DNA of 64,000 bases. Source: Escherichia coli (GTDB lineage Bacteria; Pseudomonadota; Gammaproteobacteria; Enterobacterales; Enterobacteriaceae). How positions within the stretch are numbered: the first letter of the stretch is position 1; every line of letters starts with the position of its first letter. Below the pieces are notes generated by a model. It searched no databases. It was not told where the DNA came from and saw only the letters and a program-made list of their open reading frames with translations. Location of the stretch: the NCBI RefSeq assembly GCF_003019035.1, contig NZ_CP027447.1, one strand, 5' to 3'. Below, one piece after another: positions 24,899 to 47,763 of the stretch. The position numbers and the translations under genes are program-made.

Positions 24899-26548
24899 TT
24901 AGTCCATTAATAATTGTCGGGTCAGCGTTTCGATATAGTTCTCATCAAGCCCGGTGGGATAACCATCAAAGGCCAGGTGCAGATACTCATGGGTTAAATC
25001 CAGCCGATCCTGAAGCGTAAAGAAGTTACGAATAAACAGCCGTTTCTGCTGCCGATCGGTATAGGGGAAACCTGAGACTAAACGACAGACCGCAAACACG
25101 TCTGGTTCGTTGTAGCCCGTCTCGCCTTGCAATATACGCCGCCACTGCGGCATTTTTTTCGCCAGCCAGGCTTTCGCTTTGGGTAATAACTGACAGGTTG
25201 AGCGTGGCGCTCCCCAGCGGCTAAGGCTGTTATCGGGATAAGCAAACGCGAGTATCTGGTCGTAACGCTCTCCCTGCCCCGCCTGGGCCGTGGCTTGCCG
25301 CCAGGAAAGCGTCCCTTCGGTAGCGCGACTGCCGTGATAATGAACCGGATCGCCCGCATAGATAAGATCCTGCGTCCAGGCGGTCATCGTTCGCGCCCCC
25401 GTGGTAGCTGGCGAAGCAGAAACACGCTGCGTGGCGCTGCTGTCAGGGATGGTCAGGCAATCGCCTTCCCGATTGGCATTTTGCTGTAAAAAAGTGCGTA
25501 TCGCCACGGTCATGGCTTTCGCTGCCTCAGGTGGCGTACTTTTCGCCTCACGATCCAGAACTCTGGCAACGTACTCTTCACGATCGAGATGCGACTGCAA
25601 TTTCAGTTTGCCCTTTTCGGTCAGTAAGGTCGTCTCACCGTGGCTGACAAACGTAATGTGGTTACCATTGGCAAACGTCACACGATAGTGCCCATTAAGT
25701 ACGCCGGGTTTTACTGCCGTCGAACTCTTTTCCGCCGTGATTTTCTTCAGCGGATAGCGGGCAAACAGCTCCACCAGGACACATTGCCCACTGGCAACTT
25801 GCGTCGGCACTGGCAAAACCCGATTAAGCACCGTCGCATAACGGGTCAGTACCGTTTTGCTGGTGCCACTGCCAGTCACCCACAGCGGTGTACCATCGGT
25901 TAACCAGCCGGCAAAACCACCCTGACGGATTTCCTGTTTATCATCGGCAAACCAGCTCCAGGTTTTCACCCGTACCCGACTACCGAGCATGGATGCGACA
26001 CCGATTTTCGCCTCGTCCAGCACCACATCCAGTAAGACTTCCTGAGCTTTGTTTTGCGCAGGTAACGTCGCTAATGAATCAAGCAGCGATTTAACCGTTA
26101 CCGAGGTTTCTGGCTTCAGCGTAGTAAGAGACGCTAACCACGCAGGTGCCTGACGCTGTTGCCAGTATTGCCCCCACACATCTGCGCCAATATGCAACCG
26201 CTGCGGCGCAAAATAGAGCCCACAGGAACGTACCAGCGCGGTATCGCGCGTTATACTCTCCCCAGCCTGACAACAATAAACCTCTTCCGGGGAGTTTCCG
26301 CGACACTGGTAGGGCTGCTCCGGTTGATGGGTATCCTCCAGCCAGGCGTAAACATACAGTTTCCATAAACTCCCTAACGGCGTGGTGAGCGTGTCAGGTA
26401 ATGCCGAGACTTTGGTCACGCCTGATGACGACAGCTGATACAGTTGATCGTGCTGCGCGCCCCGCAGCGCCAGTTGTAACGGCGTCTCCTCCGCAAGCGT
26501 TGGCAGAGTAACCAACGCCAATAGCCAGACGATTCTGCGCCAGTTCAC
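24899..26548 (-). CDS. yfaQ: YfaQ, secreted protein of unknown function (DUF2300-type)
   Basis: 549-aa ORF with signal peptide MNWRRIVWLLALVTLPTLA; 4-bp gap to yfaP, abuts yfaS. Confidence 0.85.
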   Translation of the reverse strand: MNWRRIVWLLALVTLPTLAEETPLQLALRGAQHDQLYQLSSSGVTKVSALPDTLTTPLGSLWKLYVYAWLEDTHQPEQPYQCRGNSPEEVYCCQAGESITRDTALVRSCGLYFAPQRLHIGADVWGQYWQQRQAPAWLASLTTLKPETSVTVKSLLDSLATLPAQNKAQEVLLDVVLDEAKIGVASMLGSRVRVKTWSWFADDKQEIRQGGFAGWLTDGTPLWVTGSGTSKTVLTRYATVLNRVLPVPTQVASGQCVLVELFARYPLKKITAEKSSTAVKPGVLNGHYRVTFANGNHITFVSHGETTLLTEKGKLKLQSHLDREEYVARVLDREAKSTPPEAAKAMTVAIRTFLQQNANREGDCLTIPDSSATQRVSASPATTGARTMTAWTQDLIYAGDPVHYHGSRATEGTLSWRQATAQAGQGERYDQILAFAYPDNSLSRWGAPRSTCQLLPKAKAWLAKKMPQWRRILQGETGYNEPDVFAVCRLVSGFPYTDRQQKRLFIRNFFTLQDRLDLTHEYLHLAFDGYPTGLDENYIETLTRQLLMD

Positions 26549-33395
<6,847 letters not shown>

Positions 33396-33504
33396 TGCCA
33401 CATTCCTTGTGTAAAGCCAGCCATTTTTTACGAGCACAGCAAAACTTTACCGCGCCCTAATACGACAAAAGCCCAGACTTTGCAGCCTGGACTTTTCAAT
33501 TCAA

Positions 33505-33530
33505 ACAAGGGAGATATCTCCCTTTTGGCA
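33505..33530 (-). terminator. Putative terminator after gyrA
   Basis: Perfect palindrome AGGGAGATATCTCCCT just past the gyrA stop, with T-rich flank. Confidence 0.5.
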
Positions 33531-33543
33531 TGAAGACGTAAAA

Positions 33544-36171
33544 TTATTCTTCTTCTGGCTCGTCGTCAACGTCCACTTCCGGAGCGATTTCATCGTCCCC
33601 TTCCGCGGCACTGCCGTCGATGGTATCCAGATCTTCCTCGTCAACCGGTTCAGCAACACGTTGCAGACCCACTACGTTTTCATCTTCCGCAGTACGGATG
33701 AGGATCACACCCTGGGTGTTACGGCCCACGATGCTGATTTCTGAAACGCGAGTACGTACCAGCGTACCGGCATCGGTGATCATCATGATCTGGTCGCAGT
33801 CATCTACCTGCACTGCGCCAACCACTAAACCGTTACGTTCGGTAACCTTGATGGAAATAACCCCTTTCGTCGCACGCGACTTGGTTGGGTATTCCGCCAC
33901 TGCGGTACGTTTACCATAACCGTTCTGCGTTGCGGTGAGGATTGCGCCATCACCACGAGGTACGATCAGAGAGACGACTTTATCGCCTTCGCCTAAACGA
34001 ATACCGCGAACACCGGTGGTGTTGCAGCCCATCGCACGGACAGAAGACTCTTTAAAGCGCACCACTTTACCTTCAGCGGAGAACAGCATTACTTCATCTT
34101 CGCCACTGGTCAGGTCAACGCCGATCAGCTCATCGCCTTCAACCAGTTTGATCGCCACTTTACCGGCAGTACGCAGACGGTTGAATTCGGTGAGGACGGT
34201 TTTCTTCACAGTTCCGTTAGCGGTCGCCATGAAGACTTTCACGCCTTCTTCAAACTCGGTCACTGGCAGGATCGCAGTGATACGTTCGTCTTGCTCCAGC
34301 GGCAGCAGGTTGACGATCGGACGACCGCGCGCGCCACGAGTAGCTTCTGGCAACTGGTAGACCTTCATCGAATAGACGCGACCACGGCTGGAGAAGCACA
34401 GAATATGGTCGTGGGTATTCGCCACCAGCAGTCGGTCGATAAAGTCTTCTTCTTTAATACGTGCGGCAGATTTACCTTTACCGCCACGACGCTGCGCTTC
34501 GTATTCAGAAAGCGGCTGATACTTCACGTAGCCCTGGTGAGAGAGCGTCACGACCACATCTTCCTGGGTGATCAGATCTTCCAGGTTGATGTCTGCGCTG
34601 TTGGCGGTGATTTCAGTACGACGTTTGTCACCGAACTGTTCACGAACCAGCTCCAGCTCTTCGCGGATCACTTCCATCAGACGATCGGCGCTACCAAGAA
34701 TACGCAACAGTTCCGCGATCTGATCCAGCAGCTCTTTGTATTCGTCGAGCAGTTTTTCGTGCTCAAGGCCGGTCAGTTTCTGCAGACGCAGATCCAGAAT
34801 CGCCTGAGCTTGCTGTTCGGTCAGGTAGTACAGACCATCGCGCACGCCGAACTCTGGCTCCAGCCATTCCGGACGCGCAGCATCGTCGCCAGCACGTTCC
34901 AGCATCGCGGCAACGTTGCCCAGCTGCCACGGATTAGCAACCAGCGCGGTTTTCGCTTCTGCAGGCGTCGGCGCATGACGGATCAGTTCGATGATCGGGT
35001 CAATGTTCGCCAGCGCCACGGCTAATGCTTCAAGGATATGAGCACGATCGCGAGCTTTACGCAGTTCGAAAATAGTACGACGGGTCACCACTTCACGGCG
35101 GTGACGAACAAACGCCGCGATGATGTCTTTCAGGTTCATGATCTTCGGCTGACCATGGTGCAATGCCACCATGTTAATACCGAAAGAAACCTGCAACTGG
35201 GTCTGGGAGTAGAGGTTGTTGAGCACCACTTCACCGACCGCATCGCGTTTCACTTCAATCACGATGCGCATACCGTCTTTGTCAGACTCGTCACGCAGCG
35301 CGCTGATACCTTCCACGCGTTTTTCTTTTACCAGTTCCGCAATCTTCTCGATCAGGCGCGCTTTGTTCACCTGATACGGAATTTCATGGACGATAATGGT
35401 TTCACGTCCGGTTTTGGCGTCAACTTCCACTTCAGCACGGGCGCGGATATATACCTTGCCGCGACCGGTACGGTAAGCTTCTTCAATACCGCGACGACCA
35501 TTAATGATTGCCGCCGTCGGGAAGTCCGGCCCAGGAATGTGTTCCATCAGCCCTTCAATGCTGATGTCTTCATCATCGATATACGCCAGACAACCGTTGA
35601 TAACTTCCGTCAGGTTGTGCGGCGGGATGTTGGTTGCCATACCTACGGCGATACCGGAGGAACCGTTCACCAGCAGGTTAGGAATTTTGGTTGGCATGAC
35701 GTCCGGAATTTTTTCCGTGCCGTCATAGTTATCAACGAAATCGACCGTCTCTTTTTCGAGATCGGCCATCAGTTCATGGGCAATTTTCGCCAGACGGATT
35801 TCCGTATAACGCATTGCCGCCGCAGAGTCGCCGTCGATGGAACCGAAGTTACCCTGACCGTCTACCAGCATGTAACGCAGCGAGAATGGCTGCGCCATAC
35901 GGACGATCGTGTCATAAACCGCCGAGTCACCATGGGGATGGTATTTACCGATTACGTCACCAACGACACGGGCAGATTTTTTATAGGCTTTGTTCCAGTC
36001 ATTGCCTAGTACGTTCATGGCGTAAAGTACGCGACGGTGTACCGGCTTCAGGCCATCTCGGACATCCGGCAGCGCACGGCCAACAATGACCGACATCGCA
36101 TAATCCAGATAGGAGCTCTTCAGCTCTTCCTCAATGTTGACCGGTGTAATTTCTCTCGCAAGGTCGCTCAT
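33544..36171 (-). CDS. gyrA: DNA gyrase subunit A
   Basis: 875-aa [50 protein letters not shown]...; QRDR reads [10 protein letters not shown] (Ser83 = TCG at 35925..35923, Asp87 = GAC at 35913..35911). Confidence 0.97.
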
Positions 36172-36215
36172 CTAACCGCTATCCCTCTACTGTATCCCGG
36201 ATTCAAAGGTCGGAG

Positions 36216-36221
36216 ATTATA
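36216..36221 (-). promoter_or_regulatory. Candidate gyrA -10 hexamer (TATAAT)
   Basis: Minus strand reads TATAAT about 45 bp upstream of the gyrA ATG; no mapped transcription start. Confidence 0.4.
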
Positions 36222-36429
36222 ACACAATCGCTTGCGGACGGGTAAACGTAATGCAGGCTTCCGGGCGCTGTAGATCTACTGCGTTTTACCCCACCGCCAG
36301 CACACATCGCGCTGGCGGTGAACGACAAAGGAACAAAGACCGCAACACGCTTCCTGTGCCTCAATAAACACCAGAAATAATGGCTATACTCGTCATACTT
36401 CAAGTTGCATGTGCTGCGTCTGCGGGTTA

Positions 36430-36598
36430 TTCGGCCCATCCATGGGCCTCACCCCTTACGGGGCCGCTGCAAGCAGCGTTCAAATCCGCTCCATGCGGAT
36501 TTGTCGCTCACCCCAGTCACTTACTTATGTAAGCTCCTTGGGATTCACTCGCTTGTCGCCTTCCTGCAACTCGAATTATTTAGAGTATATAAATCGCC
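36430..36598. repeat. ERIC-like (enterobacterial repetitive intergenic consensus) element
   Basis: Core at 36505..36548 is the reverse complement of GTGAATCCCaAGGAGCTTACATAAGTAAGTGACTGGGGTGAGCG, the conserved ERIC central inverted repeat; outer boundaries approximate. Confidence 0.7.
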
Positions 36599-36599
36599 G

Positions 36600-37802
36600 T
36601 TATTTGATCACATAGGCAAGATATTGTTGTACGATTTCATCGTTTAATTCCTGACCAAGCCCAGGCAACTCTGGCGCGACATAATAGCCATTCTCGGGTT
36701 GATAATCGTAAGTACAAAGTTCCCGAATACATGCTTTCATCGCATTGGTATGATGTTCATGAATAATAAAGTTAGGTATTGCAGTTTCCATATGCAGCGC
36801 CGCTACTGTTGAAACAGGCCCGCCACAAACATGTACCTGAACGGTTGTGTCATATATATTGGCATAATCACAAATTTTCTTTCCCTCTGTAATGCCACCA
36901 CAAAGACACAAATCAGGTTGAGCTACCGCAATTGATTGTTTTTCCAGTAAATCACGATATCCCCAGCGAGTATAAGAACGCTCACCTGTTGCTATCGGAA
37001 TCGATGTTGAACGGGCAACTTTCTGCATATTATCCGAATTTAATGGATGAATTGGCTCCTCATAGAGAAAAATACGATATTTCTCTATTGCTTTGGCAAA
37101 CTGGATCGCTGAATTTGTTCCTAGAAGAGAATGAATCTCTACAATAATATCAGCATCGTCGCCCATTGCTTCACGCATAGCGGCAATTCTTGTCTCGCCC
37201 ATTTTTAATTGTTCGGCCAGTAATAAGCCAGAGTAATTTCTATTTTTGTTCTGAAAGACACAATCGCCGCCATGCAGATCGATTTCAAGCGGATCAACTT
37301 TTATCGCATTATAACCTTCTGCAATAGCGGCACGCGCTGCCTCTGCATACTCTTCAGGCGTTACTAATATTTGCCTTTTTTCGCCCCAACCAAATTGTAA
37401 CTGACTGGCGTAAGTTCTCAATTTATCGTTAGTCTTTCCCCCCAGTAGTTGATAAACCGGCACGTTTAAATATTTACCTTTAATATCCCATAAGGCAATA
37501 TCAATAGCGCTCATACCTGCGTAAAAAACATTACCACCGCCCATTCCCCAAAATGTTTTCCTGAAGAGGAATTCCCAAATCTTCTCAATGTTCAACGGAT
37601 CTTCACCAATGATGAGAGGGGCTAAATCTCTGATAATACCAACACCAGATTTTGCACCTGCGCCATAGGCTAATCCTACTTCGCCAACACCACTTATTCC
37701 AGCATCGGTATTAACCCGAATAAGTACTGGATTATAAGAGGCCATAGTTTGATCTCTTTTTTTGAGTTCGCAGTCAAAAATTTCTACAGATGTAATCTTC
37801 AT
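36600..37802 (-). CDS. Enolase-superfamily dehydratase (mandelate racemase / galactonate dehydratase-like); substrate unknown
   Basis: 400 aa from the ATG at 37802 (GAGG Shine-Dalgarno 7 nt upstream; ORF track starts at 37814). Motifs ALWDIKGK, QLLGG, EEP, ATGER, QPDL, GGITE shared with DgoD/RhmD-type enzymes. Confidence 0.8.
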   Translation of the reverse strand: MKITSVEIFDCELKKRDQTMASYNPVLIRVNTDAGISGVGEVGLAYGAGAKSGVGIIRDLAPLIIGEDPLNIEKIWEFLFRKTFWGMGGGNVFYAGMSAIDIALWDIKGKYLNVPVYQLLGGKTNDKLRTYASQLQFGWGEKRQILVTPEEYAEAARAAIAEGYNAIKVDPLEIDLHGGDCVFQNKNRNYSGLLLAEQLKMGETRIAAMREAMGDDADIIVEIHSLLGTNSAIQFAKAIEKYRIFLYEEPIHPLNSDNMQKVARSTSIPIATGERSYTRWGYRDLLEKQSIAVAQPDLCLCGGITEGKKICDYANIYDTTVQVHVCGGPVSTVAALHMETAIPNFIIHEHHTNAMKACIRELCTYDYQPENGYYVAPELPGLGQELNDEIVQQYLAYVIK

Positions 37803-37814
37803 AAATAACCTCAT

Positions 37815-39143
37815 TTATTTAGCATGTGAAATAACATTGTCTTTCTGGGCGTTATCTTTTTTATTATCAATTTTCATTGATAACAAAATAGCTACGGCGA
37901 TAAAGCAAAGAATCGCCTCAACAATAAATATCCCCGTGGCTCCATAATGTGTAGAAACATAGCCAAGTGATTTATTGATCAGAAAACCACCCAAACTTGA
38001 ACAAGAGTTAATAAACGCAATACTGATTGCCAGGCCTGATGGTGAAAGTAAAGCTGAGGGTAAAGCCCAGTACGGACCGTAATAACTGAGAATGCCTACA
38101 CCGTATAATGTTAATCCCATCATGCGCAGCGTCATCGAAGGTACAAGTGCGATCATTAAAAAACCGCAACCTGCAACCAACATCGGTAGTGCGGCATGCC
38201 ATTTCCTTTCATTCTTTTTATCGGAATGCCATCCCCATAATGGCATACTGAACATCGCGAAAATAAACGGAATACTCATAATCAAACCGACATCGGTATC
38301 TGTGAAATCCGATGAAAATCCTTTAACCAACCCCGGTAACCAGTAATTTGCCGCCAACGCCGCTGCCTGAATAAACATATAAGCAAATGAGAGTTGTAGT
38401 AATACTGGATTTTTAATGATTGACAGAAAAGATGCATTTGTATTTTTATTTAATGCTGCGGCTTTTTCGTTATCAGAATTAAGTTTATCGACCAATGCGG
38501 TGACTTGCGATGGTGTAAGCCAGCGGGCTTTTTCCGGACGATCTGGCAGTAAATAAAAGGTCAGCGCCCCCAATAACACCGTAGGAATGCCTTCAATAGC
38601 AAAAAGCCAGCGCCATCCTTCATAGTTACCGGTATTCATATGTTCAATAATCCAACCAGACATTGGTGCCGCCAGCACAGATGCAACTGCGATTGATAAC
38701 ATAAAAAAGCTATTCACTTTTCCACGTTCACGCGCCGGGAACCAACATGCCAGGTAGTAAACCATGCCAGGGAAAAAACCCGCTTCAAATATTCCCAAAA
38801 AGACCCGAGCGAGCAATATATGCTGGGTGTCTTTGGCAAAGAAAATTAACGTTGTTACTGTTCCCCAACCAACAATAATGGCGCTAATCCATTTTCTTGC
38901 ACCTAACTTTTGCAATCCAATACTGCTCGGAATTTGAAAAATCAAATAGGACACAAAAAATATTGAAGATATATTAGCAAAATCCTCTGGAGTAATACCA
39001 AGGGATTCATTCATGCGTAAAGCGGCAAATCCGATGTTAACACGATCCATATAGTTAAAAAAATACAGAATAAATGCTAACGGAATAATCTTCCTTTTCA
39101 CAATAGAAATGGCGTCATACAAATCTTTCTGAGGACTGCTCAT
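37815..39143 (-). CDS. MFS transporter, anion:cation symporter family (sugar-acid type)
   Basis: 442-aa polytopic ORF; conserved DRxNIGFA and GIFEAGFFPG motifs as in RhmT/DgoT-type transporters; AAGGTG Shine-Dalgarno; 12-bp gap to the dehydratase gene. Confidence 0.8.
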   Translation of the reverse strand: MSSPQKDLYDAISIVKRKIIPLAFILYFFNYMDRVNIGFAALRMNESLGITPEDFANISSIFFVSYLIFQIPSSIGLQKLGARKWISAIIVGWGTVTTLIFFAKDTQHILLARVFLGIFEAGFFPGMVYYLACWFPARERGKVNSFFMLSIAVASVLAAPMSGWIIEHMNTGNYEGWRWLFAIEGIPTVLLGALTFYLLPDRPEKARWLTPSQVTALVDKLNSDNEKAAALNKNTNASFLSIIKNPVLLQLSFAYMFIQAAALAANYWLPGLVKGFSSDFTDTDVGLIMSIPFIFAMFSMPLWGWHSDKKNERKWHAALPMLVAGCGFLMIALVPSMTLRMMGLTLYGVGILSYYGPYWALPSALLSPSGLAISIAFINSCSSLGGFLINKSLGYVSTHYGATGIFIVEAILCFIAVAILLSMKIDNKKDNAQKDNVISHAK

Positions 39144-39380
39144 TTTGTTTCACCTTTTGTGCTTCAATGAATAAGAGTACTGCCCGAAGTGGATATTACG
39201 TAAAAAATAATCCAGTTCAAAAGGTGATGTGTTATATCTGATATATCAGCTTGATCATTGATTGAAACACTAAGCTACAACAATAAGATATATCATTTTT
39301 GTCATATCTGATATATTAGACACCTTCATTGATAAAATGATTACATATAATGGACCAGCAGCTTAATAAGGGGCAAAGGA

Positions 39381-40079
39381 ATGAGAGATAAAGCGAAACG
39401 TGACTTAAGTCACATATCAATTGAGATACCAAAATCCGTAACACAGGTCATCAAAGAAAAAATCAGGGATATGATAATTCATGGCGATCTCAGTCTTGGG
39501 CAACCGATAAGTGAAAATGAACTTTCGAATATCCTGGCGGTAAGTAAAACACCTATTCGTGAAGCTTTTATTTTACTTAGTCACAATGAAAATCTGATCA
39601 ATATCATTCCACGCAGCGGAACATTCGTTTTTTCCGTAACAGATAAAGATATTAATGACCTCATAAAAATGCGAGTAATTCTGGAGCAGGGTGCAATTCG
39701 TGAAGCAATGGAAAAGAATGAAAACAATGTCATCATTGAATTAAGTAGCATACTATCAAAATCAGCAAAAATTAATGCCGAGCGTGATACTCAGGCTTAT
39801 CTTAAATTGGATCATGATTTTCATTATGTGTTTGTTAAATACGCTGCTAATAAATACATCTCTCAGGCACACCAATTGATATCCGCACGTTTACTTGCTA
39901 TTCGTTATCGACTGGATTTCACTACGGAATATATTACCAATTCAAATCGTGGCCATGCCACTATTTTAGATATGCTAAAAAATAATAACGTTGAAGGTGT
40001 TTGTAATTTTATTACTCATCACGTAAGTAGTGGATTTACCGAGCGTGCACGAAAAATTCTCTCGTTATCTACACAGTAA
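39381..40079 (+). CDS. GntR-family transcriptional regulator (FadR/FCD-type C-terminal domain)
   Basis: 232-aa ORF; N-terminal winged HTH (ENELSNILAVSKTPIREAF); divergent from the MFS-dehydratase pair; AAGGGG Shine-Dalgarno 7 nt upstream. Confidence 0.8.
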   Translation: MRDKAKRDLSHISIEIPKSVTQVIKEKIRDMIIHGDLSLGQPISENELSNILAVSKTPIREAFILLSHNENLINIIPRSGTFVFSVTDKDINDLIKMRVILEQGAIREAMEKNENNVIIELSSILSKSAKINAERDTQAYLKLDHDFHYVFVKYAANKYISQAHQLISARLLAIRYRLDFTTEYITNSNRGHATILDMLKNNNVEGVCNFITHHVSSGFTERARKILSLSTQ

Positions 40080-40156
40080 AATGTGAATGAGTTTATAACA
40101 CTGGCACTTTTCACCTGCTATACTGCCCGACAACCTTTATAGACTCTTATGTAACA

Positions 40157-40879
40157 ATGAACACTGAAAATCTCCTTAAAAACAATAACGTAGACCACGA
40201 AGAGATCGCTAAATTTGAAGCCGTCGCCTCCCGCTGGTGGGATCTTGAAGGTGAGTTCAAACCGCTGCACCGCATTAACCCGCTGCGTCTGGGCTATATT
40301 GCCGAGCGTGCTGGCGGTTTATTTGGCAAAAAGGTGCTCGATGTCGGTTGTGGCGGCGGCATTCTGGCCGAGAGTATGGCGCGCGAAGGCGCGACGGTGA
40401 CCGGTCTGGATATGGGCTTTGAGCCATTGCAGGTGGCAAAGTTGCACGCGCTGGAAAGTGGCATTCAGGTAGAGTACGTGCAGGAAACCGTGGAAGAGCA
40501 CGCGGCAAAACATGCCGGGCAGTATGACGTGGTGACCTGCATGGAGATGCTGGAGCACGTGCCCGATCCGCAGTCAGTGGTCAGAGCCTGTGCGCAACTG
40601 GTGAAACCGGGCGGCGATGTCTTTTTCTCGACGCTTAACCGCAACGGCAAGTCATGGCTGATGGCGGTAGTCGGCGCAGAATATATTTTGCGCATGGTGC
40701 CTAAAGGTACACATGATGTGAAGAAGTTTATTAAACCGGCAGAATTGCTGGGCTGGGTGGATCAGACAAGCCTTAAAGAGCGGCATATGACTGGGCTGCA
40801 TTACAACCCGATCACTAATTCCTTTAAGCTCGGCCCCGGCGTGGATGTGAACTATATGCTGCATACGCAGAATAAGTGA
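40157..40879 (+). CDS. ubiG: UbiG, ubiquinone biosynthesis O-methyltransferase
   Basis: 240-aa ORF with SAM-binding [13 protein letters not shown] motif; N-terminus [16 protein letters not shown] differs from the recalled K-12 N-terminus, the rest is near-identical. Confidence 0.93.
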
Positions 40880-40884
40880 GGTTG

Positions 40885-41015
40885 TTGTTTGGATTCAGCC
40901 GACGACCGAGCCAAGCCTGATGCGACGCTTGCCGCGTCTTATCAGGCCTACAAATGCTCCCGTAGGCCAGATAAGGCGTTTACGCCGCATCCGGCAACAG
41001 TGCCGGTCAGACAGC
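40885..41015. repeat. REP/BIME palindromic units between convergent ubiG and yfaL
   Basis: gcctgatgcgacgcttgccgcgtcttatcaggcctacaa... / ggccagataaggcgtttacgccgcatccggc palindromes; spurious ORFs 40889..41236 and 40920..41114 lie in it. Confidence 0.7.
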
Positions 41016-45477: not shown

Positions 45478-47763
45478 ATGAATCAGAATCTGCTGGTGAC
45501 AAAGCGCGACGGTAGCACAGAGCGCATCAATCTCGACAAAATCCATCGCGTTCTGGATTGGGCGGCAGAAGGACTGCATAACGTTTCGATTTCCCAGGTC
45601 GAACTGCGCTCCCACATTCAGTTTTATGACGGTATCAAGACCTCTGACATCCACGAAACCATTATCAAGGCTGCCGCAGACCTGATCTCCCGTGATGCGC
45701 CGGATTATCAGTATCTCGCCGCGCGCCTGGCGATCTTCCACCTGCGTAAAAAAGCCTACGGCCAGTTTGAGCCGCCTGCGCTGTACGACCACGTGGTGAA
45801 AATGGTCGAGATGGGCAAATACGATAATCATCTGCTGGAAGACTACACGGAAGAAGAGTTCAAGCAGATGGACACGTTTATCGATCACGACCGTGATATG
45901 ACCTTCTCTTATGCTGCCGTTAAGCAGCTGGAAGGCAAATATCTGGTGCAGAACCGTGTGACCGGCGAAATCTACGAAAGCGCCCAGTTCCTTTATATTC
46001 TGGTTGCCGCGTGCCTGTTCTCGAACTACCCGCGTGAAACGCGCCTGCAATACGTGAAGCGTTTTTACGACGCGGTTTCCACATTTAAAATTTCGCTGCC
46101 GACGCCAATCATGTCCGGCGTGCGTACCCCGACTCGTCAGTTCAGCTCCTGCGTACTGATCGAGTGCGGCGACAGCCTGGATTCCATCAACGCCACCTCC
46201 AGCGCGATTGTTAAATACGTTTCCCAGCGTGCCGGGATCGGCATCAACGCCGGGCGTATTCGTGCGCTGGGTAGCCCGATTCGCGGTGGCGAAGCGTTCC
46301 ATACCGGTTGTATTCCGTTCTATAAGCATTTCCAGACAGCGGTGAAATCCTGCTCTCAGGGCGGTGTGCGTGGCGGTGCGGCTACGCTGTTCTACCCGAT
46401 GTGGCATCTGGAAGTTGAAAGCCTGCTGGTGTTGAAAAACAACCGTGGGGTGGAAGGCAACCGCGTGCGTCATATGGACTACGGGGTACAAATCAACAAA
46501 CTGATGTATACCCGTCTGCTGAAAGGTGAAGATATCACTCTGTTCAGCCCGTCCGACGTACCGGGGTTGTACGACGCGTTCTTCGCCGATCAGGAAGAGT
46601 TTGAACGCCTGTATACCAAATATGAGAAAGACGACAGCATCCGCAAGCAGCGTGTGAAAGCCGTTGAGCTGTTCTCGCTGATGATGCAGGAACGTGCGTC
46701 TACCGGTCGTATCTATATTCAGAACGTTGACCACTGCAATACCCATAGCCCGTTTGATCCGGTCATCGCGCCAGTGCGCCAGTCTAACCTGTGCCTGGAA
46801 ATCGCCCTGCCGACCAAACCGCTGAACGACGTCAACGACGAGAACGGTGAAATCGCGCTGTGTACGCTGTCTGCTTTCAACCTGGGCGCAATTAACAGCC
46901 TGGATGAACTGGAAGAGCTGGCAATTCTGGCGGTTCGCGCACTCGACGCACTGCTGGATTATCAGGATTACCCGATCCCGGCCGCTAAACGTGGAGCGAT
47001 GGGGCGTCGTACGCTGGGTATTGGTGTGATCAACTTCGCTTACTACCTGGCGAAGCACGGTAAACGCTACTCCGACGGCAGCGCCAACAACCTGACGCAT
47101 AAAACCTTCGAAGCCATTCAGTATTACCTGCTGAAAGCGTCTAATGAGCTGGCGAAAGAGCAAGGCGCGTGCCCGTGGTTTAACGAAACCACTTACGCGA
47201 AAGGGATCCTGCCGATCGATACCTATAAGAAAGATCTGGATGCCATCGCTAATGAGCCGCTGCATTACGACTGGGAAGCACTGCGTGAGTCAATCAAAAC
47301 GCACGGCCTGCGTAACTCCACGCTTTCTGCTCTGATGCCGTCAGAGACTTCTTCGCAGATCTCTAACGCCACTAACGGTATTGAACCGCCGCGTGGTTAC
47401 GTCAGCATCAAAGCGTCGAAAGACGGTATTCTGCGCCAGGTGGTGCCGGACTACGAGCATCTGCACGACGCCTATGAGCTGCTGTGGGAAATGCCGGGTA
47501 ACGATGGCTATCTGCAACTGGTGGGTATCATGCAGAAATTTATCGATCAGTCGATCTCTGCTAACACCAACTACGATCCATCACGTTTCCCGTCAGGAAA
47601 AGTGCCGATGCAGCAGTTGCTGAAAGACCTGCTCACCGCCTACAAATTCGGGGTCAAAACGCTGTATTATCAGAACACCCGTGACGGTGCTGAAGACGCA
47701 CAAGACGATCTGGTGCCGTCAATCCAGGACGATGGCTGCGAAAGCGGCGCATGTAAGATCTGA
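45478..47763 (+). CDS. nrdA: Ribonucleoside-diphosphate reductase 1 alpha subunit
   Basis: 761-aa ORF MNQNLLVTKRDGSTERINLDKIHRVLDWAAEGL... Confidence 0.97.
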   Translation: MNQNLLVTKRDGSTERINLDKIHRVLDWAAEGLHNVSISQVELRSHIQFYDGIKTSDIHETIIKAAADLISRDAPDYQYLAARLAIFHLRKKAYGQFEPPALYDHVVKMVEMGKYDNHLLEDYTEEEFKQMDTFIDHDRDMTFSYAAVKQLEGKYLVQNRVTGEIYESAQFLYILVAACLFSNYPRETRLQYVKRFYDAVSTFKISLPTPIMSGVRTPTRQFSSCVLIECGDSLDSINATSSAIVKYVSQRAGIGINAGRIRALGSPIRGGEAFHTGCIPFYKHFQTAVKSCSQGGVRGGAATLFYPMWHLEVESLLVLKNNRGVEGNRVRHMDYGVQINKLMYTRLLKGEDITLFSPSDVPGLYDAFFADQEEFERLYTKYEKDDSIRKQRVKAVELFSLMMQERASTGRIYIQNVDHCNTHSPFDPVIAPVRQSNLCLEIALPTKPLNDVNDENGEIALCTLSAFNLGAINSLDELEELAILAVRALDALLDYQDYPIPAAKRGAMGRRTLGIGVINFAYYLAKHGKRYSDGSANNLTHKTFEAIQYYLLKASNELAKEQGACPWFNETTYAKGILPIDTYKKDLDAIANEPLHYDWEALRESIKTHGLRNSTLSALMPSETSSQISNATNGIEPPRGYVSIKASKDGILRQVVPDYEHLHDAYELLWEMPGNDGYLQLVGIMQKFIDQSISANTNYDPSRFPSGKVPMQQLLKDLLTAYKFGVKTLYYQNTRDGAEDAQDDLVPSIQDDGCESGACKI

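Follow-up and report, generated by a model that had tools for sequence, protein, structure and literature searches.

Ser83 and Asp87 of the Escherichia coli GyrA protein sit on helix alpha-4. Fluoroquinolones dock into the gyrase-DNA cleavage complex through a water-Mg2+ bridge that reaches the keto-acid of the drug. Both S83 and, four positions further on, the acidic residue D87 have been described as anchors of this water-metal ion bridge in the E. coli enzyme (PMC9917921), and according to two studies target-mediated resistance usually stems from substitutions of S83 and D87 (PMC9917921; PMC3632122). The E. coli gyrA substitutions collected by PointFinder comprise A51V, A67S, G81C, D82G, S83L/W/A/V/I, A84P/V, D87N/G/Y/H/V, Q106H/R and A196E (PMC5890747). 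In the present analysis, Table 1 of that publication has served as the resistance catalogue, with the GyrA protein of K-12 MG1655, on which PointFinder also relies, as the quinolone-susceptible reference.

The gene considered here is located on the minus strand, at 33544..36171, of a 64,000-nucleotide stretch of E. coli DNA that was analysed as a whole and is referred to as the window. With great confidence, it can be regarded as an ordinary, intact, wild-type E. coli gyrA, from which no gyrase-based fluoroquinolone resistance would be predicted. The result is a routine negative with a textbook quinolone-resistance-determining region (QRDR).

The quinolone-resistance-determining region

According to the list of open reading frames and their translations, gyrA, which encodes DNA gyrase subunit A, starts with an ATG at 36171 and comprises 875 amino acids followed by a stop codon; its first four codons are ATG AGC GAC CTT. 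A one-to-one alignment with the gyrA gene of K-12 MG1655 (b2231; 2628 nt in both cases) contains no gaps, and the reading frame is intact, with neither an indel nor a premature stop codon. Codon n starts at position 36171-3(n-1). Since the alignment is gap-free, this numbering is that of standard E. coli gyrA, and a miscounting of codons has been ruled out. Chance is not an issue either, because the gene shares 97.8% DNA identity with its K-12 counterpart and the two proteins differ in 1 of 875 residues. Long plus-strand reading frames running across the gene (for example 35038..36009) were set aside as antisense artefacts of a coding region.

The first-pass annotation had described wild-type codons at positions 83 and 87, surrounded by a 13-residue susceptible peptide, and both the reading of the sequence and the alignment bear this out to the exact coordinate. 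Codon 83 is TCG (35925..35923, minus strand) and encodes the serine that anchors the water-metal ion bridge, while codon 87 is GAC (35913..35911, minus strand) and encodes the aspartate that constitutes its acidic anchor (PMC9917921). Across this part of the gene the minus strand reads cat ccc cat ggt gac TCG gcg gtt tat GAC acg atc gtc, and the peptide is found in the translation. The QRDR in its entirety (codons 67-106; 35854..35973, minus strand) has the amino acid sequence of the K-12 MG1655 protein, with no substitution at the other positions about which the annotation had expressed a reservation, such as 81 and 84. The differences from K-12 inside the region are silent and occur at codon 85 (GTC>GTT), codon 91 (CGC>CGT) and codon 100 (TAT>TAC); a further silent change, TCT>TCC, is located just beyond it, at codon 111. 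When the positions of the catalogue are considered, A51, A67, G81, D82, S83, A84, D87, Q106 and A196 are all wild type, and so is A119. Hidden substitutions at further QRDR or catalogue positions have been ruled out, with D678E being the only amino-acid change in the protein.

The prediction that gyrA mediates no fluoroquinolone resistance, which was also part of the first-pass annotation, is supported by the wild-type residues at all PointFinder positions. With both anchors intact and no catalogued substitution, the drug would be expected to bind gyrase and poison it normally, so that gyrA should contribute no resistance of its own. For genotyping, the gyrase encoded here would count as a normal fluoroquinolone target, with no resistance flag for the locus. 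The prediction covers the target genotype alone, and a genotype cannot prove susceptibility. It is a correct negative of small practical value, which brings no new insight into gyrase or resistance.

The genome of SCU-301 and determinants outside the window

The window corresponds to the reverse complement of positions 1696766..1760765 of the E. coli SCU-301 chromosome (NZ_CP051751.1), from which it departs at 3 of its 64,000 bases. The three differences are located at 46890 (silent, in nrdA), at 29172 (in an alpha-2-macroglobulin gene, where D631G results relative to SCU-301) and at 25478 (silent, in yfaQ). In view of these, the source of the window is a very close relative of SCU-301 or a resequenced version of it, as opposed to the deposited record. 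SCU-301 is a commensal obtained from a rectal swab of a healthy college student. It has been assigned to phylogroup F and sequence type ST967 (PMC11251922). Its gyrA gene (HHJ43_RS08080, WP_001281251.1) is 100% identical in DNA sequence to that of the window, and this exact allele is present in 1 of 5,426 complete E. coli genomes, namely SCU-301, with the next best match reaching 98.9%. The 24 kb flanking the gene show the same ceiling of 98.9% when compared with further strains of phylogroup F, SMS-3-5 among them. A local recombination patch has therefore been ruled out as the source of the rare allele, and because the surroundings share the ceiling, its rarity reflects the lineage, the rare ST967, and not gyrA itself.

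A wild-type gyrA could still be carried by a non-susceptible isolate if resistance arose through parC, parE or gyrB, through qnr or aac(6')-Ib-cr, or through up-regulated efflux, in which case the gyrA finding would be true yet misleading about the phenotype. The genes parC, parE, gyrB, marR, acrR and soxR all lie outside the window, and the parC check was made in SCU-301 as a proxy, a genome at least 3 SNPs away from that of the window and not demonstrably from the same isolate. Against this route to resistance, parC, parE and gyrB of SCU-301 are without catalogued mutations. Compared with K-12, D475E is the only change in parC and T172A the only one in parE, while gyrB has S492N, A618T and E656D; each of these is uncatalogued in PointFinder. 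For parC D475E alone, 475 susceptible and 7 resistant cases have been recorded (PMC7067475). The plasmid pSCU-301-1, a 5.9 kb mobilisable replicon of the ColE1 type and the sole plasmid of the strain as far as adjacent accessions show, is free of qnr, aac(6')-Ib-cr, qepA, oqxAB and other resistance genes, and the annotation of the 64-kb window likewise contains no quinolone-resistance gene.

More general considerations also speak against such determinants. Clinically relevant resistance in E. coli almost always begins at gyrA S83, and SCU-301 is a commensal of a healthy student. Wild-type gyrA alleles come overwhelmingly from susceptible genomes, with susceptible to resistant counts of 179:2, 152:1 and 637:3 (PMC7067475). 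Non-susceptibility brought about from outside gyrA is regarded as very improbable. A susceptible phenotype is the preferred reading, to which the resistance catalogue, the published allele-phenotype counts and the wild-type parC, parE and gyrB of SCU-301 all point. The gyrA call itself fits the origin of this near-identical strain as a commensal of a healthy person and the wild-type state of its three other target genes.

D678E and the DNA upstream of gyrA

Between the gyrA genes of the window and K-12 there are 58 nucleotide differences, 57 of which are silent. The alignment places the only amino-acid difference at codon 678 (34138..34140, minus strand), which is GAA, for Glu, in the window and GAC, for Asp, in K-12. 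This residue is outside the QRDR, in the C-terminal DNA-wrapping domain, and a long way from the pocket that helix alpha-4 and the cleaved DNA form for the drug. The substitution is absent from the PointFinder catalogue (PMC5890747). It has been found to track the sequence types ST405, ST38 and ST1193 in clinical collections, with or without S83L/D87N (PMC10638923), and since it accompanies S83L/D87N in these types in the manner of a lineage marker, D678E is a background polymorphism. A machine-learning study of the pan-genome counted the D678E-only allele in 152 susceptible E. coli genomes as against 1 resistant one, and singled it out as linked to susceptibility (PMC7067475). A different view has been expressed in a study where D678E appeared in one strain after stepwise exposure to enrofloxacin and was labelled resistance-inducing, without allelic-exchange evidence (PMC11721436). 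This constitutes a weak dissent, contradicted by the 152:1 ratio of susceptible to resistant genomes.

Homology with K-12 extends over 32751..36226, where it starts at yfaA, spans gyrA and ends 55 nt before the gyrA ATG, and it resumes inside ubiG at 40180. Near the end of the homologous stretch, TGTTATAAT (36216..36224, minus strand) is identified, by its identity with the K-12 upstream sequence, as the extended -10 of a putative gyrA promoter. What is known of this promoter in K-12 suggests a promoter function for TGTTATAAT here as well. TTTACC, located upstream of TGTTATAAT, and the 37-nt leader are conserved in the alignment with K-12. A generic scan for the sigma-70 consensus left the gyrA promoter uncalled because its -35 is poor, and the -10 was placed through the K-12 alignment. 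The discriminator that directly follows the -10 (36210..36215, minus strand) reads TATAATCTCCGACC, as opposed to TATAATTTGCGACC in K-12, with the remaining leader identical. At the other end of the gene, 20 nt past the stop codon, a pattern scan detected a terminator-like hairpin, AAGGGAGATATCTCCCTT (33507..33524, minus strand), as a match to the consensus only. No structured RNA of an Rfam family was detected in 33000..41000 at the gathering threshold.

In place of the 114-bp spacer that separates gyrA from ubiG in K-12, the window has an island of 3,953 bp (36227..40179), which at a coverage of at least 80% occurs in only 140 of the 5,426 complete E. coli genomes. It contains a frameshifted gene for a GntR-family regulator (39337..40079), a gene for an MFS transporter (37815..39143, minus strand) and a gene for an enzyme of the mandelate racemase/muconate-lactonizing family, of the enolase superfamily (36600..37802, minus strand). 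The two intact genes are located upstream of gyrA and have the same direction. An ERIC repeat is situated at about 36385..36590, between the enzyme gene, which is the last of the island, and the gyrA promoter. The ERIC2 primer sequence has an exact match at 36505..36526 (minus strand), and the ERIC1R sequence matches with one mismatch at 36527..36548 (plus strand). With a length of about 200 bp, the element appears to be a long form with an internal insertion, and it is because of this repeat that the island region gives multi-copy matches in every genome. Closer to the gene, the stretch 36293..36321 (minus strand), which lies roughly 70 nt ahead of the gyrA -10, contains a perfect inverted repeat of 10 bp, CACCGCCAGC-N9-GCTGGCGGTG, with no T-run after it. 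This repeat may represent a REP-like hairpin or a barrier to transcription that separates the island operon from gyrA.

These features, together with D678E, have to be weighed against the reading of a plain wild-type target. It could be argued that D678E, or the changed sequence ahead of the promoter, lowers quinolone susceptibility in spite of a wild-type QRDR. Such an argument can draw on the listing of D678E among "substitutions inducing resistance" after enrofloxacin exposure (PMC11721436), on the presence of the island and the ERIC repeat where K-12 has its gyrA-ubiG spacer, beyond about -55 from the ATG, and on the two bases directly 3' of the gyrA -10, which differ between the window (TATAATCTCC) and K-12 (TATAATTTGC). 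The allele counts and the behaviour of D678E as an uncatalogued lineage marker oppose the first of these points. For the upstream DNA, we know of no gyrA promoter variant that has been catalogued as a resistance determinant. Lowered susceptibility from either source is considered extremely improbable. In a milder form, the island and ERIC context or D678E could have a subtle effect on gyrA expression, supercoiling homeostasis or the quinolone response without any QRDR mutation; this is judged very improbable. The surroundings of the gene, namely the island, the ERIC repeat, the promoter and the terminator, have no bearing on the QRDR call, which remains that of a wild-type gyrase.

Gene identity and comparison with known gyrA alleles

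The assignment of the gene to gyrA has been made with the help of several family criteria. The protein scores 1309.7 bits with TIGR01063, the NCBIfam equivalog model for GyrA, where the cutoff is 877. It matches the E. coli GyrA structures 6rks and 7z9c over its full length, and its C-terminal domain matches structure 1zi0 over residues 535-841. Tyr122 of GyrA is the catalytic residue; in the translation, both Arg121 and Tyr122 are present in the winged-helix domain, with codon 122 at 35806..35808 (minus strand). The GyrA box, which separates GyrA from ParC and for which the pattern Q(R/K)RGG(R/K)G was used, is found as QRRGGKG at residues 560-566 (34474..34494, minus strand), in the C-terminal beta-pinwheel domain. 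The gene order is ubiG-gyrA-yfaA. The proposal that the gene is instead its paralogue parC, the gene for subunit A of topoisomerase IV, whose similar motif HPHGDSACYE shares HPHGDS with GyrA and to which the codon numbering would not apply, can be dismissed, since the protein scores 581.5 with the parC_Gneg model TIGR01062, under its cutoff of 628.9, passes the GyrA model, has 875 residues as opposed to 752 in ParC, contains the GyrA box within the ubiG-gyrA-yfaA synteny and is one residue away from K-12 GyrA.

As GyrA, the protein would be expected to have supercoiling activity together with GyrB, given the 874 of 875 residues shared with the K-12 enzyme. In a megablast search, the gene had a match in 5,425 of 5,426 complete E. 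coli genomes, and an annotated gyrA was present in all 30 of the matches listed. Among the 5,431 matches in this collection, a single one belongs to a record labelled as plasmid, and a single genome of the 5,426 is without a match; both are probably oddities of assembly or classification.

SCU-301, with its identical gyrA, is among the closest known systems. K-12 MG1655 GyrA (b2231, NP_416734.1) likewise has 875 amino acids and is identical in 874 of them and throughout residues 67-106, and its gene has the start codon, the -10 element and the last 37 nt ahead of the ATG in common with the window. It differs in having Asp678 and in retaining its own spacer beyond about -55, where the window has the 3.95 kb island. 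The "gyrA-1" class of Hyun et al. 2020 (PMC7067475) carries D678E alone relative to K-12, as does the allele of the window, the likeness being one of substitution pattern. Resistant alleles with S83L or S83L+D87N, as in ST131, ST410, ST405 and ST1193, are alleles of the same gene and in some cases have the D678E background as well. The window allele differs from them in lacking S83L and D87N, the bridge-breaking substitutions of the resistant alleles.
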